DNA of 64,000 bases from Bacteroidota bacterium (GTDB lineage: Bacteria > Bacteroidota > Bacteroidia > Chitinophagales > Chitinophagaceae): contig CANHHX010000003.1 in assembly GCA_947461125.1 (NCBI GenBank), forward strand, positions 9,658 to 73,657. The letters are read 5' to 3'. The notes beneath the pieces are model-generated. The model was not told the DNA's origin. It did no database searches and was given only the letters and a program-made list of their open reading frames with translations. Positions within the stretch are counted from its first letter, which is position 1; each line of letters opens with the position of its first letter. The position numbers and the translations under genes are program-made. Positions 38,358 through 44,230 of this stretch are shown here, in pieces.

Positions 38358-38502
38358 TTTCTCTTTTTTATTGTATTTAACGCAGAATTTAATGGATTGT
38401 TAAATGTGCGGGAAATACAGGCTCATGTTGTAACTTAACAACATATGTTGCGGTTGTGAATGATCTGTCATAGATCTATTTGATAACATAAACCAATCCC
38501 CT

Positions 38503-39165
38503 ATGCGAATCAACAACATCTTACCGGTTACCCTGTTTGCAGCAAGTCTTATTGTGGCTAGTAGCCTTTACGCACAAACAAGTACAAGTACAAGTAAATT
38601 CAAACCTAAGCCAACTTACACGGCACACTTATCTGTGGGACAGGTGTTTTTTGGTACAGGCGATATTAATGGTTATGGACTTTTGGTAGCCGTAGAAAAA
38701 TCTGTTTTTAAAAAATCGGTGCGGCCTTTTCCAGCCTTTCAAGTTGGCTTTGGCCTCAATTTTGAAACAGGCATTAGAAAGCCTATAAATATTTTACATC
38801 CAAACGGTGATTTTGAAGAATCAAGTTATGGTCAAACCAGCAAAACATCGGGCTGGGCTACCTTTAAATACCATCCATTCAAACATTCGATGGATGGATT
38901 TAGTGTTACGGTAGGTCCAACATTAGGTATCACACAATCAACTTCCGAAAAAAGTAGAAGTTTTATTTACGATTCATTTTATGGTGTGATTCGAAGATCA
39001 GTTATTGAAACAGAAAATCATTTTGGTATGGGTTACCGCATTGCGGTGCAACAACAATTTGCCATCAAGGATCATTTTTTTATTGGTTTTCGCGCCGACT
39101 TTTCAAACGATGTACATGGCGATGTTAATACTTATTTAGGCGGTAGTCTGAGTTATCGTTTTTAA
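38503..39165 (+). CDS. Hypothetical small outer-membrane beta-barrel protein
   Basis: Signal peptide LYA-Q; alternating amphipathic strands; C-terminal YLGGSLSYRF beta-signal. Confidence 0.72.
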   Translation: MRINNILPVTLFAASLIVASSLYAQTSTSTSKFKPKPTYTAHLSVGQVFFGTGDINGYGLLVAVEKSVFKKSVRPFPAFQVGFGLNFETGIRKPINILHPNGDFEESSYGQTSKTSGWATFKYHPFKHSMDGFSVTVGPTLGITQSTSEKSRSFIYDSFYGVIRRSVIETENHFGMGYRIAVQQQFAIKDHFFIGFRADFSNDVHGDVNTYLGGSLSYRF

Positions 39166-39188
39166 ACAAATCTTGGAAATTTTTTCCG

Positions 39189-39222
39189 AAAATAACCGGC
39201 CCTTTGGGCCGGTTATTTTTTT
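39189..39222 (+). terminator. Intrinsic terminator
   Basis: AAAATAACCGGCCC-TTT-GGGCCGGTTATTTT followed by more T. Confidence 0.9.
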
Positions 39223-39391
39223 GATGTTCAGTCTACATCTGCGGAAAATATCAGAACTAATGCGCAACCTTATTTACCAATAGCATTGAAACTCATTTAT
39301 GCGGCTTCGCGTAACATAAACAGTGGTTTAATTGAATAGGTTACACTAGATAGCTATCCAACCATATTCTATTCACTTTAAATTAAGCACT

Positions 39392-40771
39392 ATGTTATTG
39401 AACGTAAAAAAAGGCTTGCTTGCGCTAACCCTTCTTACTGCTATGATCAGTTGTAAAAAAAATGCAATCGACTTCACAAACGGCGTTGTCGATGAAAGTA
39501 AAGTATACCAAAAACCAATTTCTTATGATCAAATCGAACTTGTAAATAACCTCGAAAAAATCACCCTGATTTTAGAGGACCTCTACAAAGAAAAAAAGAA
39601 CCTCAAACTCGTCAATGCGGCTATTTATGCAAAAGCCTACACCGACGAATCGGTTTTATTAAAAGACCTTATCAACCCCATGCATAGTGTCCTTCCTGGC
39701 AATAAAAAATTTGGGGAGCTCTGCGGAAAATGGAACGTACGCTTGCAAGATTTTTCGGATGCTTTTTGGAAAGCTGCACGAATCAAAAACGATACCCAAT
39801 TGATTGATTTTTTAGAGTTTGTTCAAACCAGTAACCTACCAGTTCAACAATTAAACAATAGCACATTTGGGACAAACGGTGGATCCATTCACAACAGCAA
39901 TAGTAGCCAAGTAAGTATTTACTTCCCGTACAGCAATGAATTTGACATTAGCGCCAGTGGTGACAGTTATGGCCCAATTTCTAGCTTAGTAACATCCGTC
40001 GCAGAAGCAGACGAAGCCCTTGGCTTTCAGCCCTATTATAGTGGTGGCGTATTAATGGAATACCGCCCAGTAATTGTTAATGACGACTATGCGTTTTCCC
40101 ATCCCACCCATATTGTGGGCATTAATGGTGTCGAACCCTATGAAACACAGGACGCCACATTAAATCCACCCAATGTTACAAACCCTCCAAACGTTAACCG
40201 GGTTTATGTAGGTGATGGTATTTGCAGGGTACAATATGACAGGCTTTTTAGCTTTACGGGTAATGGTGGCGGTTCTGAAATTACCTATTGCAGGGTAAGT
40301 GGTTACCTTAAACTAGCGGGTTATCAAATCACCGAATTTGAAGACAAAACTGAAGTAGAGTTTGAGCGCGGTACCATTCGCAAAAAACAATGGCTGCGTG
40401 TATATGCGGTTTGGGATGCCGATTGGGTGGTTGAAAATAAAGAGCAGGTTTTTGCAATCTATGAAGACGACAAAAATGCAGAAATTACCTTCACAGGATC
40501 TCTTAGCACAAAGCTCAAAGTTTCAGACGGAACTACCGTAGATGGCAGTATCGACTATCAAATAAAAAGGAGCTCCCAAGATGATATTATCAAGCAATTA
40601 AAAATATCGCGTGTCTCCTATTTTGCGGGGGCCCATAGGAATCAAGGATGGGGCTTTGGTATTGATAAATCATTTTTACCAGCATCTGCAACACAGGGAT
40701 GGCCATTTTATGACGCTGTATCAGATGGTGGTGCCAACGTAGGTTGGACCTGGCCTTATGACGGTTATTAA
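39392..40771 (+). CDS. Hypothetical lipoprotein
   Basis: Lipobox AMIS-C then KKN; 459 aa; no recognised enzyme motif. Confidence 0.8.
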   Translation: MLLNVKKGLLALTLLTAMISCKKNAIDFTNGVVDESKVYQKPISYDQIELVNNLEKITLILEDLYKEKKNLKLVNAAIYAKAYTDESVLLKDLINPMHSVLPGNKKFGELCGKWNVRLQDFSDAFWKAARIKNDTQLIDFLEFVQTSNLPVQQLNNSTFGTNGGSIHNSNSSQVSIYFPYSNEFDISASGDSYGPISSLVTSVAEADEALGFQPYYSGGVLMEYRPVIVNDDYAFSHPTHIVGINGVEPYETQDATLNPPNVTNPPNVNRVYVGDGICRVQYDRLFSFTGNGGGSEITYCRVSGYLKLAGYQITEFEDKTEVEFERGTIRKKQWLRVYAVWDADWVVENKEQVFAIYEDDKNAEITFTGSLSTKLKVSDGTTVDGSIDYQIKRSSQDDIIKQLKISRVSYFAGAHRNQGWGFGIDKSFLPASATQGWPFYDAVSDGGANVGWTWPYDGY

Positions 40772-40795
40772 TAGCATATCAATGATCAAATAACT

Positions 40796-40866
40796 AACAA
40801 GCCAACCCGAGTACTAGTAACCATCCTAATTCGCTGGGTACAAAATAGTAGTAGGGTTGGCTTGTT
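40796..40866. other. Long imperfect hairpin between convergent genes (terminator or structured RNA)
   Basis: 13-bp perfect outer stem AACAAGCCAACCC/GGGTTGGCTTGTT with inner TACTA/TAGTA and GTAACCA/TGGGTAC pairings. Confidence 0.7.
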
Positions 40867-40868
40867 TT

Positions 40869-42167
40869 CTATTTTAAATCGGCGGTATTCACACGCGTTG
40901 GCGTGTCTTTACCACTTACAATACCACGAGCACTAAGTGCTATGGCCTTGATAATTCTTGTCATATTATCTATATCAATCGTACCAATTTCATCGGTGGC
41001 TTTATGGTAATACGGATCGGTATCAATTTTAGTAGTAGAAATGGTATGGGCTGGAACCCCAAGTCTAGCAAGGGTTGCATTGTCTGAACGGTAAAATAAA
41101 TTTTGTGCAGGATAGGGATCCGGATAAAATGTAAAATCGGTGCCTTCTAAATTTGCTTGTAAAATTTTACCCATATCTGTTTTGTCGTACCCGGTAATAA
41201 ACGCAGAGTTTTTACCCCACTTACTTTCAGATCCAATCATTTCTAAATTAAACATCGCCATTACTTTTGCTGGGTCCAATTGATTTGAAAAATAAGTAGC
41301 ACCAAAACCACCTACTTCTTCTGCTGTAAATGCAGCAAATACAAGTGTACGCTCGTTGTTATTTGCCGCTTTATAATATTTTGCAAGCACCATCATAGCT
41401 GTGGTACCAGCTGCATCATCATTAGCGCCATTAAAGATTGAATCGGCTACTACATTACCATTTCTATCTTTACTATTAACGCCTAAATGATCATAATGTC
41501 CACTAAAAATTACAATTTCATCAGGTCTTGATTTGCCAGGTAGTACACCCACCACATTAGCAAGTGGCATTTCAGTAATTTCATGTTTAGCTTCAATACT
41601 ATAGCTAGTAGGGGTTATAGCGCTCAACACAAACACCACCGATTTATCAGATTTGAATAAATTAGACTTGAGTCTTGTTAGCCCGCTAAATGTTTTTGCA
41701 AAACTAGTATCCACAATAACAAGTGCATTCTTTTTTAAAGCCGCAAGCTTGCGCGCTTCACCCAGTAAATTGGCGGTTTTCCCAATCGTTATTTTTTCAT
41801 AACCCGATGTTTCGTTGATTGAAATTGAAGGCTGTGTTGTTACAACTACAATGTCTTTTTTATCAAGTGCAGCACCGTCAAAACTTCCTGATGCGCCTAA
41901 AAACTTGGTACGCACCATGGCAAAGGATTGCAGGTAAGTGCCACTGTTATTGAGGGTTTTAAGCCCGGTAGCTTTAAACTCATCTGCAATAAATGCAGCT
42001 GCTTTTTCGATACCTGGGGTAAATGTCCTACGCCCCTGCATATCATCTGCTGCAAGAATGGTTTCGATACGTCTTACCTCTTTTTCTTTGATGAGCTTAT
42101 CTACGTTTTGCGCCTGTGCAGTAACAAGGAGTAGCAAACCGGCAACTAGAATATTTATTTTTTTCAT
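40869..42167 (-). CDS. M28 family metallopeptidase, secreted
   Basis: SGHYDHLG, NGANDDAAG, FTAEEVG, NLEMIG, YRSDN, YYH; signal peptide AQA-Q. Confidence 0.92.
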   Translation of the reverse strand: MKKINILVAGLLLLVTAQAQNVDKLIKEKEVRRIETILAADDMQGRRTFTPGIEKAAAFIADEFKATGLKTLNNSGTYLQSFAMVRTKFLGASGSFDGAALDKKDIVVVTTQPSISINETSGYEKITIGKTANLLGEARKLAALKKNALVIVDTSFAKTFSGLTRLKSNLFKSDKSVVFVLSAITPTSYSIEAKHEITEMPLANVVGVLPGKSRPDEIVIFSGHYDHLGVNSKDRNGNVVADSIFNGANDDAAGTTAMMVLAKYYKAANNNERTLVFAAFTAEEVGGFGATYFSNQLDPAKVMAMFNLEMIGSESKWGKNSAFITGYDKTDMGKILQANLEGTDFTFYPDPYPAQNLFYRSDNATLARLGVPAHTISTTKIDTDPYYHKATDEIGTIDIDNMTRIIKAIALSARGIVSGKDTPTRVNTADLK

Positions 42168-42229: not shown

Positions 42230-42961
42230 TTATAAGCTCATCATTTCTTTGAACTTAACGGTTTGGCGTCTGCTCACTTCAATTTTTTCGCCACCCTTTA
42301 ATTCTACAATGAGACCCCCATTAAAGTATGGTTCAATTTTGTCAATCCAACGTAGATTAATGATGTGCTTGCGATTGGCCCTAAAAAACATGCGATCATC
42401 TAGGCGCTCTTCAAGTGCATTTAAAGATTTTAAGATCAGCGGCTTATTGCCATCAAAAAATACTTTTGCATAGTTACCCACGCTCTCAAAAAGCCTGATT
42501 TCTCCCAGTTTCACAAACCAACAACGCTCCCCATCCTTTACAAACACCTGATCTTGCTCTGTTAAAGGACCGCGGTTGTTACCATGAAAACCAATTTGTT
42601 CTTTAAACAGTTCGGCCTGTAGTTTTTGAATGGCATCCGACAAACGCTTTGGCTCAATGGGTTTTAATAAATAATCAAGGGCGTTTACTTCAAATGCTTT
42701 AATAGCATAGTCGTCGTAGGCTGTGGTAAAAATTACCTTAGGTGCACGCTCTACTTCTGACAGTAAATCAAACCCTGTTTTACCGGGCATTTGAATGTCT
42801 AAGAAAATTAGGTCGGGATTGTGCTGTTCAATTTTTTCGATACCCTCATCTACATTGGACGCTTCGTCGAGGACTTCAATGTCGGAATGATCGAGTAATA
42901 ATTTTTTTAACTCATTACGCGCGAGCCTTTCGTCGTCAATAATAATTGCTTTTATGGCCAT
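42230..42961 (-). CDS. LytTR-family response regulator
   Basis: IIDDE, FLDIQMP, DYLLKP receiver domain; FFRANRKHIIN...VSRR LytTR domain. Confidence 0.95.
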   Translation of the reverse strand: MAIKAIIIDDERLARNELKKLLLDHSDIEVLDEASNVDEGIEKIEQHNPDLIFLDIQMPGKTGFDLLSEVERAPKVIFTTAYDDYAIKAFEVNALDYLLKPIEPKRLSDAIQKLQAELFKEQIGFHGNNRGPLTEQDQVFVKDGERCWFVKLGEIRLFESVGNYAKVFFDGNKPLILKSLNALEERLDDRMFFRANRKHIINLRWIDKIEPYFNGGLIVELKGGEKIEVSRRQTVKFKEMMSL

Positions 42962-42978
42962 ATTATTTTCTATTAAAA

Positions 42979-44040
42979 TTATTTATTGTTGGCGGTTAAA
43001 GGAAGTCTAACAACCGCCTCTACCATATGATCTTTTGTGTTTTGTATAAAAAAGTTTGCTTTGTCCCCAAAAAGTAACGCGAGTCTATTTTTGGTACTAC
43101 TAACACCAAAACCACTATTATCAATATCTAAATCATCCTCAATTGCACCCGTATTTTTAATAATTAACTGGTGTTGGTCATTTTTAAACTCGGACCATAT
43201 TTCAACAACGCCTCCTTCTCTTTGCTTACCAATACCATGCTTGATAGCGTTTTCTACAAGGGTTTGCAGCATCATAGGTGGCACCGGTTGATCCAGCGTA
43301 TCTTCATCGATATGATACACAACGCGTAACCTGCTTTCAAATCTAATGGTTTCAAGCGCTAAATAATCTTTTACAATCGACAGTTCTTTTTCTAGTGTTA
43401 CCGTTTCAAGTTTTTCGGCTTGCATACTGCTGCGCAAAATATTACTAAGCTCTGTAATGGCTGTTCTTGCTCGTTCTGGATTTTCATCTACAAGGGCTCT
43501 AATACTATTGAGTGCGTTAAAAATAAAATGCGGATTGATGTGCGCTTTAATTGTTTTTAATTCTAGTTCTTTTACAAGCGTTTCAAGTCTTACTTTTTGA
43601 ATTTCATTCATACGCCCTAACTGCACATAATGCCAGACATAATAAATACTCACCCAAATAAAAATCATGGGTGAATCAAAAATTAAATTGGAAAAGAAAC
43701 GCGTACTTACAGAAAATTTAATTTTTGGATCGTATAGTCCAACCCACTCTACAAGTGCACTATTGGTTAAACTATAAAATACAACCACACTAAAAAAAAG
43801 AAGTACCAAAAGCCACCATTTTTGAAGTGGGAAAGGTGGCCTTAATTTAAACCCGATAATGAGTGATCTAAAAAGGTGGGTAAATAAAATACCAGAAACA
43901 ATGGTAATGCCCAGTCTTGGATAAAATACAGGGTTGGGCTTGCTGTCAAAAATGAAAGCAAAAAAAATCATGGTTAACCCATAAGAAAACCAGCCTCCTA
44001 CTTGACACCACCAATAAACAAGGTTATTTCTTCTAGACAT
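42979..44040 (-). CDS. LytS-family sensor histidine kinase
   Basis: 4 TM segments; KAHINPHFIFNALN, LQTLVENAIKHG; start at ATG 44040 after TAACTTTG. Confidence 0.94.
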   Translation of the reverse strand: MSRRNNLVYWWCQVGGWFSYGLTMIFFAFIFDSKPNPVFYPRLGITIVSGILFTHLFRSLIIGFKLRPPFPLQKWWLLVLLFFSVVVFYSLTNSALVEWVGLYDPKIKFSVSTRFFSNLIFDSPMIFIWVSIYYVWHYVQLGRMNEIQKVRLETLVKELELKTIKAHINPHFIFNALNSIRALVDENPERARTAITELSNILRSSMQAEKLETVTLEKELSIVKDYLALETIRFESRLRVVYHIDEDTLDQPVPPMMLQTLVENAIKHGIGKQREGGVVEIWSEFKNDQHQLIIKNTGAIEDDLDIDNSGFGVSSTKNRLALLFGDKANFFIQNTKDHMVEAVVRLPLTANNK

Positions 44041-44230
44041 AGCTACAAAGTTAAAAATTAAGCACCCCATAAGGGGTAAATTAAGGAAGAAAGGCAAAAA
44101 CAACCCTTGGTTGGTATAAAATAAAGTGGAGAAGGGGTGAACCTTTGGTTTTGTGTGATGTTTGTATTGGAGGAAAGGTGTTTTGCTTCACAGTAAATGC
44201 CTATTTTTACAACCTAAACTAACTTTTTGC

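Follow-up and report, generated by a model that had tools for sequence, protein, structure and literature searches.

Small outer-membrane β-barrels encoded beside a lipoprotein gene are a known pattern in the Bacteroidota. According to the accessible text of a 2026 preprint, the surface lipoproteins of this phylum are exported by the lipopolysaccharide (LPS) translocon and Slam is absent; the same text describes LptQ, an 8-stranded barrel whose loops, including a large insertion between strands 5 and 6, anchor the lipoprotein LptR encoded by the adjacent gene (10.64898/2026.10.03.756453). Bt1926, predicted to be 8-stranded, is presented in the available part of another study as a putative anchor or secretion partner of the S-layer lipoprotein Bt1927 (PMC12578637). 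So far as the accessible descriptions go, the signal peptidase II (SpII) lipoprotein toxins BSAP-1, a MACPF protein, and BcpT are each accompanied by an adjacent protective gene (PMC12853789, PMC9308784); that of BSAP-1 encodes a 14-stranded outer-membrane barrel of the FadL type (PMC12853789), and BcpT has a removable N-terminal region and a 57-amino-acid (aa) lipoprotein as partner (PMC9308784). Here we describe a barrel and lipoprotein gene pair in a 64,000-nucleotide stretch of a Chitinophagaceae genome (assembly GCA_947461125.1, contig CANHHX010000003.1, positions 9,658 to 73,657); this whole stretch is called the window, and all coordinates refer to it.

The two genes are co-oriented and lie between GGGPS (PcrB, NF003198) and a convergent M28 peptidase gene. 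The first (38503..39165, + strand) encodes a 220-aa small outer-membrane β-barrel of what we call family A, with a Sec-type N-terminus and a C-terminal YRF; the second (39392..40771, + strand) encodes a 459-aa lipoprotein with the lipobox MISC and Cys21. An initial annotation, made from the letters alone, had reported this layout, a Sec-exported β-strand protein ending in YRF and a lipoprotein, and all of these were found as claimed. Structure models of the two products suggest to us, tentatively and with somewhat less than even confidence, that the lipoprotein may be a Ca-dependent pore-former which inserts a hairpin into membranes and is kept by binding to the barrel.

Cys21 is conserved to at least 90% across 70 rows of the lipoprotein alignment. 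In the model of the protein (pLDDT 80.6), a helical domain is followed by a beta domain, and a Pro-rich linker leads on to a sandwich at the C-terminus. This sandwich (residues 265-459; 40184..40768, + strand) is predicted to be a C2 domain, since C2 domains fill nearly all the top rows of its VIA fold comparison; it is the consistency of this list, and not its best score (Z 6.9, rmsd 3.9, 117 aligned, with about 75 domain residues left as unaligned insertions), on which the call is based. Foldseek returned weak C2 rows at E 0.02 and, for the whole lipoprotein model, nothing at E≤0.001. Five acidic residues of the domain are conserved in 88 diverse homologs (D283 0.99, E296 0.86, E358 0.99, D360 1.00 and D397 0.74); going by C2 motifs, they would bind Ca from loops CBR1 and CBR3. 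The N-terminal helical domain (about residues 40-148) and the middle beta domain (about residues 170-250), delimited by modelled secondary structure (39509..40141, + strand), are common to relatives that differ in their C-terminal insert, and we infer for them a role as pro- or adaptor region; a fold search that barely covered this stretch returned no match for them. Neither protein of the pair matched NCBIfam, PADLOC, PHROGs or PDB sequences, and Pfam gave nothing significant, with one row at E 0.15.

C2 domains enter membranes via a lipid-contact loop. Between E358-x-D360 and D397 of the lipoprotein, at what is presumably the C2 loop CBR3, sits an amphipathic β-hairpin (residues 361-395; 40472..40576, + strand; model strands 364-376 and 382-394). 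In 70 close homologs, its alternate columns 367, 371, 375, 387, 389 and 391 hold a hydrophobic residue in 99-100% of cases, and the opposite face is mostly S/T/G/N. The alternation is strict over two 13-residue strands, a length sufficient for an amphipathic hairpin that spans a bilayer. The hairpin measures 27-43 residues in 83 of 85 distant homologs, and between the proteins of loci L021 and L022 its identity is 0.50, as against 0.75 overall, with the alternating pattern retained.

The superfamily to which the lipoprotein belongs has 408 representatives (50% clustering, E≤0.001) and appears to be without a name. It is joined by a sister family of 89 proteins, found via L078, which stands beside a distant family-A barrel. 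This family aligns to the lipoprotein end to end (HH probability 98%, about 14% profile identity) and carries a like insert between EED and DDDLG. The L067 protein has the middle domain in common (42 bits), but its insert at the corresponding position is helical and hydrophobic; Bacteroidota DUF3103 proteins show, by eye, a similar domain order, similar loop motifs and again a hydrophobic helical insert. The profile link to DUF3103 (PF11301), to which an Atlas lead had pointed, is weak (probability 41-76%); at the Pfam gathering score it was matched by none of the 37 distant members, scanned together with L067 and L078, by none of 66 sister-family members and not by G000. At two metagenome loci (L124:1781-3949 and L125) the homolog is a secreted protein that ends in an F5/8 discoidin domain, and neither locus has a barrel. 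Gene content points to an actinobacterial-type context for both, and the layout suggests that of a receptor-binding toxin. The L124:1781-3949 product is 722 aa long, with an extra N-terminal domain followed by the N-domain/C2 module with its insert and by the F5/8 domain. A DUF3103-positive lipoprotein at L100:1087-2169 was seen by eye to have a short C2-like loop, ERDGGLGGSDDHVD, without the insert; it is a candidate for a plain bacterial C2 lipoprotein.

The product of the first gene is predicted from its model (AF2 pLDDT 84.6) to be an 8-stranded outer-membrane barrel of the OmpA/OmpX type. Its best fold matches are OmpA (Foldseek E 9.5e-8), OmpX, Ail and NspA (VIA Z 17.3, rmsd 2.8, 147 aligned), with Dot/Icm porin III also among them (Z 16.0); the eight strands, the signal peptide and the C-terminal aromatic residue all accord with this type. 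In the model, strands 5 and 6 reach far outside the membrane, with a long extracellular hairpin between them. The Atlas neighbours of the barrel are OMP_b-brl and TraO, and its homologs gave OMP_b-brl_2 matches below threshold. In alignments, the broad family A has the conserved loop motifs (F/H)GTGD and N/QxDxxGD. A second family of small barrels, B, was found beside other copies of the lipoprotein; it has no detectable relationship to A (HH probability 5.8%), and both families appear to be unnamed. A PagL-like enzyme role was considered for the barrel on the strength of weak hits (E 0.03-0.8, Z 15.5) and rejected, as the His-Ser pair that we take to be the PagL catalytic signature is unconserved in the alignment.

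To relate the two products, the neighbourhoods of 49 lipoprotein loci were scored. A co-oriented family-A or -B barrel lay no more than 1 kb away in 42 of them, a count for which the class profiles were partly built from the scored neighbours themselves: 17 have A upstream (one clade, counted as one event), 9 have A downstream and 16 have B downstream. In three of the other seven the contig stops within 420 bp downstream; the remaining four, all of Pseudobacter type, have no barrel. An independent heuristic placed a barrel beside 41 of the 49 lipoproteins, compared to one of 51 large lipoproteins of the source genome, that single match being the locus under study itself. In the sister family, for which the profile was not built from the loci concerned, barrel A lies downstream in 15 of 25 metagenome loci, a set that contains two near-duplicate pairs, some short contigs and several other barrel-like neighbours. 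Adjacency persists through the reversal of gene order. Homologs of the lipoprotein thus stand almost always next to a small barrel, and the rarity of such adjacency, which the initial annotation had named as evidence against its view, was not seen.

The pairing is not one-to-one. On a quick lipoprotein tree of 37 rows, which takes in 4 of the 17 Sediminibacterium-clade loci and excludes short or split ORFs, the barrel class changes label at least 5-6 times on well-supported branches, and the lipoproteins of L021 and L024, 72% identical, are accompanied by different barrel families. Tandem barrels follow the lipoprotein in L063, L053, L115 and L117. Barrels also occur alone: in 300 family genomes, a lipoprotein of the present kind was found within 1.5 kb of three of eight strong family-A hits and three of 14 family-B barrels. 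Lipoproteins of the Pseudobacter-type clade, which lack the barrel, retain the acidic residues and the hairpin, and the barrel is therefore not an obligatory antidote. The idea of a dedicated partner, put forward in the initial annotation, is accordingly supported as far as pairing goes, whereas a strict one-to-one relation is contradicted by the swaps, the lone barrels and the barrel-less lipoproteins. One Chitinophagaceae slot, flanked by what we take to be serC and a DUF1015 gene, holds the pair, the barrel alone or the lipoprotein alone (L061/L070, L072, L076, L079, L043, L044, L046, L048 and L065) and offers a natural experiment for the pair. Two further arrangements were noted: a lipoprotein-barrel-lipoprotein tandem on Taibaiella/Edaphocola-labelled contigs (L049-L051), where the next gene of L051 starts, by eye, like a SIR2-type defence protein, and a family-B barrel at L088:1113-3634, in an array that also holds another barrel and two lipoproteins, one of them small and the other with a hydrophobic end that resembles a glycine zipper, this latter being a candidate membrane-active protein.

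The pair co-travels in freshwater and soil Bacteroidota. Both genes are single-copy in the source genome, whose closest named relatives are Sediminibacterium metagenome-assembled genomes (MAGs). The lipoprotein was found in one of 24 same-genus genomes with a single query; a profile search recovered it from 13 of 300 genomes of the family, and a close barrel-A profile had matches in one of 300 phylum genomes. When the best 30 GGGPS loci from 61 genus genomes were compared, six contained the cassette, this genome included, with GGGPS at least 96% identical in all six; in seven the site is empty and GGGPS directly faces M28, and the remainder have other genes in the slot or an early contig end. 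In one Sediminibacterium-like clade the cassette was inserted between GGGPS and M28, and insertion is patchy and at variable sites; as regards presence and absence in relatives, which the initial annotation had proposed to check, the pair proved mobile and non-core. By eye, the slot after GGGPS in other Sediminibacterium (L142-L145 and L147) holds an AlkB-type-looking gene and a transporter. Broken copies are scattered: in L015 the lipoprotein gene is interrupted by an in-frame stop and the adjoining barrel is intact. Stops or frameshifts were seen in the lipoprotein of L015, L025, L030, L117, L119 and L120 and in the barrel of L034, L071 and L072, some of which may be MAG assembly errors.

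In the mechanism that we propose, the lipoprotein would be lipidated and would reach the surface via the general Bacteroidota route; its N-terminal domains, which precede the flexible Pro/Gly linker, would serve as pro- or adaptor region. Ca2+ held by D283, E296, E358, D360 and D397 would bridge to lipid headgroups; the C2 domain would then dock on the membrane and drive in the two-faced hairpin, and the hairpins of several subunits would form a β-barrel pore in a rival bacterium or grazer. The small barrel would bind the lipoprotein, probably via the long loop between strands 5 and 6, and in doing so would anchor it and curb self-damage, a task in which other small barrels could substitute. 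The genes themselves, their pairing, the patchy insertion and the sequence pattern within the hairpin are observed and the two folds are model predictions; Ca binding, membrane insertion, oligomerisation, killing, binding to the barrel and surface exposure are postulated. Pore formation is suggested by the combination of a C2 domain with a Ca-site-like cluster, a transmembrane-type hairpin in the loop that enters membranes, a helical alternative at the same place and a secreted, lectin-bearing relative. A conflict system is consistent with orphan and tandem barrels, with barrel swaps and with the scatter of broken copies, as in the case of BSAP-1 with its resistant barrel next door or BcpT with its removable N-terminus (PMC12853789, PMC9308784); the orphan and tandem barrels together with the class changes suggest the asymmetry typical of toxin/protector pairs. 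Of the possible roles for the barrel, that of binding partner is the best precedented, by LptQ-LptR and Bt1926-Bt1927. The toxin idea of the initial annotation thus gains support from the predicted C2 domain and the amphipathic hairpin, but not in its MACPF/CDC-like form, for which there was no Pfam hit.

Several results weigh against this proposal. Both genes are under purifying selection, with a ratio of nonsynonymous to synonymous change (pN/pS) of 0.17-0.21 compared to 0.04-0.07 in the flanks, and no excess of amino-acid change was found in either gene over the same 12-14 clade loci. The Z of 6.9 for the C2 match is middling, the Pfam C2 profile matched neither the lipoprotein nor the homologs scanned, and alternation is normal wherever a β-strand buries one of its faces, as the hairpin would if it simply packed on the sandwich. 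This copy has no Lys or Arg in its linker at which the usual activating proteases could cut. The hexapeptide that follows Cys21, KKNAID, has a net charge of +1 and fails the published export-signal rule, and the net charge behind the lipobox Cys is also positive in 61 of 68 close homologs; the rule is passed by two of six parsed SusD controls of the source genome and failed by four. Barrel and lipoprotein distances are uncorrelated (rho 0.08, 12 close loci), no region of the lipoprotein follows the barrel class in 26 loci, and in the Pseudobacter/Pseudoflavitalea clade the profiles detected no A or B barrel in three near-complete genomes. The lack of diversifying selection and the barrel-less clade help to keep our confidence in the pore-former restrained.

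The alternative that survives best, although we consider it unlikely, is that the lipoprotein is a surface coat or adhesin, a Ca-stabilised layer or patch anchored on the producer by the barrel, in which the hairpin would make lattice contacts or dip into the cell's own membrane, and whose benefit would be shielding from phage or grazer. This would follow the gene-pair logic of Bt1926-27 and would agree with the purifying selection and with a patchy distribution like that of surface variants. A fixed anchor interface, however, fits poorly with frequent orphan barrels and with lipoproteins that are 72% identical yet accompany unrelated barrels. No anchor is required in the barrel-less clade or by the secreted, lectin-bearing homolog of monoderm type, and no recombinase gene adjoins the cassette.

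It is also conceivable, if improbable, that the lipoprotein forms an oligomeric channel in the producer's own outer membrane, somewhat in the manner of CsgG, with a Ca-gated hairpin pore and the barrel as satellite subunit. The transmembrane-type hairpin pattern would suit such a channel, the net-positive residues after the Cys are compatible with periplasmic retention, and 8-stranded barrels do occur as satellites of large machines (the TraO-like Atlas neighbours, Dot/Icm porin III). Against it, no conserved cargo or transporter gene was found in the neighbourhoods examined, one homolog occurs in a monoderm-type context, and the insert is helical or missing in relatives. We assign a similarly low probability to a receptor replacement like that of BSAP-1, in which the toxin receptor would be the competitors' barrel and the producer would carry an adjacent resistant allele. 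In its favour, the locus tags of B1R-R and BSAP-1 run on from one to the next (BF638R_1645, BF638R_1646; PMC12853789), a single slot holds the pair, the barrel alone or the lipoprotein alone (L061/L070, L072/L076/L079, L043), and loss of the receptor would account for the barrel-less clade. Yet closely related lipoproteins switch between unrelated barrels with no region changing in step, and toxin-less Sediminibacterium relatives have an empty site, not a sensitive allele.

Quite improbable is a loose co-travel of two secreted accessory genes that gather in variable sites without any physical link between their products. The genes are separated by promoter-like spacers and a terminator, barrels are often found alone, and the barrel and lipoprotein distances are uncorrelated; but the contrast of 41/49 with 1/51 obtained by one heuristic, the survival of adjacency through order reversal and the presence of the same barrel superfamily beside the distant sister family speak against coincidence. 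The dedicated Slam/T11SS-type exporter proposed in the initial annotation, a barrel that would translocate the lipoprotein, is scarcely credible: it has in its favour the adjacency and the term 'anchor or secretion partner' applied to Bt1926 in the available text (PMC12578637), whereas an 8-stranded OmpA-type barrel is without a protein-sized lumen, the lipoprotein persists without the barrel, and the accessible preprint text reports Slam to be absent from Bacteroidota and assigns export to the Lpt translocon (10.64898/2026.10.03.756453).

The non-coding parts of the locus bore out most of what had been noted about them. The spacers before, between and after the two genes, described as long, measure 145, 226 and 97 bp, and spacers at least as long make up 8.0%, 5.0% and 8.9% of comparable ones in the genome (n=1193 co-oriented, n=304 convergent), which places them within the longest 5-9% of their class. 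The internal terminator is an intrinsic-terminator-like hairpin of 15 pairs (39188..39220, + strand; z -5.7), present in 13 of 13 aligned spacers. Upstream of the barrel gene, a conserved spacer (38358..38502, + strand), a putative promoter, contains an imperfect inverted repeat at 38372-38419 and an invariant CATATGTTG near 38442-38450, and it has one orientation in all 13 aligned spacers, which bears on the question of an invertible promoter. A second conserved spacer (39221..39391, + strand), a putative separate promoter, follows the terminator and precedes the lipoprotein gene. As to the shared upstream motifs, each spacer is indeed conserved within the clade in its own right, but the longest word common to both, the 10-mer TAACATAAAC, is marginal, being matched in 17 of 300 shuffles and occurring nine times in the genome. 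TGCGG/CGCA words recur upstream of both genes (38372-38450, 39239-39305) and are conserved in the clade; they are possibly the site of a common regulator. Positions 42230-44103 of the window presumably encode a LytTR-type two-component pair.

The long hairpin downstream of the lipoprotein gene (40796..40866, + strand; 71 nt, z -4.9) ends in a T-run and shows 94% column identity over 14 loci, with one compensatory pair in five of the 14. The whole element, including its inner loop CCATCCTWATTCGCTGG, is conserved far beyond synonymous sites (pS about 0.4-0.6). It is probably a terminator plus extra conserved structure, and possibly a 3' regulatory RNA instead of a plain terminator. It matched no Rfam family at the gathering score, no second copy was found in the genome, a strict pattern for it found none in 200 other family genomes, and it is missing from the empty sites examined. 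Beside the cassette no recombinase ORF was found, and the GC content of the cassette is unremarkable. Metatranscriptome contigs from eight RNA runs contain short pieces of both genes (for example X4 40130-40280 and 40339-40489, X2 40629-40884 and X8 38499-38587), which may include DNA and from which level and strand cannot be read.

Taken more broadly, the pair might represent an undescribed class of C2-based pore-formers with an insert in the lipid-contact loop and interchangeable small barrels as keeper or immunity factors, an idea that we regard as possible but on the doubtful side. Within that class, the insert would be a β-hairpin here and in the sister family; L067-like and DUF3103 proteins would carry a helical hairpin in its stead. 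To our knowledge, and within the literature searched, a keeper or immunity role for 8-stranded barrels has not been described. A search that left most subscription journals and bioRxiv supplements outside its scope found no literature on DUF3103, bacterial C2 lipoproteins or C2 pore-formers. According to the accessible text of a 2012 paper, C2 domains were not known beyond eukaryotes (PMC3495828); cases from bacteria have come to light since then, and one, a chain of syNOS, is among the fold matches of the lipoprotein's C-terminal domain. If the proposal is true, it would provide a new pore-former design with a modular membrane-entering insert and a handle on the origins of C2 domains, a testable function for DUF3103-like proteins and for two unnamed small-barrel families, and a possible role in competition or grazer defence in an abundant freshwater clade. 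If the lipoprotein is instead a barrel-anchored coat, the locus would be another example of the known Bacteroidota pattern.

Slam is an outer-membrane translocon of the DUF560 type with more than eight strands and a periplasmic domain, and its cargo ends in a TbpB-like soluble barrel. The barrel described here has eight strands, no extra domain and no Pfam hit, and the C-terminal domain of the lipoprotein is a predicted C2-like sandwich; neither has the features of a Slam/type XI component. MACPF/CDC identity of the lipoprotein is likewise unsupported, as there was no Pfam or NCBIfam match and no PDB sequence match to profiles; the lipoprotein differs from BSAP-1 and BcpT in being without a MACPF domain, and its likeness to BcpT is one of description. 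In perforin, C2 merely docks and the MACPF domain forms the pore. With the Ca-binding C2 domains of eukaryotes (extended synaptotagmin, intersectin, perforin C2) the lipoprotein has the sandwich fold and the acidic loop residues in common, but it is bacterial and lipid-anchored and carries a 27-43-residue hairpin in the lipid-contact loop. The DUF3103 (PF11301) proteins are similar in being lipoproteins with an apparently matching domain order and loop motifs, and differ in their helical insert and in having no barrel neighbour in the three loci examined. Bt1927, at about 100 kDa and phase-variable via an invertible promoter in the available account (PMC12578637), is likewise an accessory lipoprotein beside a predicted 8-stranded barrel, whereas the present protein has 459 aa, a C2-plus-hairpin anatomy and no recombinase found adjacent. 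LptQR, finally, resembles the locus in joining an 8-stranded barrel to the gene of a surface lipoprotein, an arrangement known here from genes and models; as described in the accessible text it is normally phylum-wide, whereas the present pair is confined to about 13 of the 300 genomes surveyed in the family, a close barrel-A profile matches one of 300 phylum genomes, and the barrels are interchangeable, features by which we would provisionally set the two systems apart.

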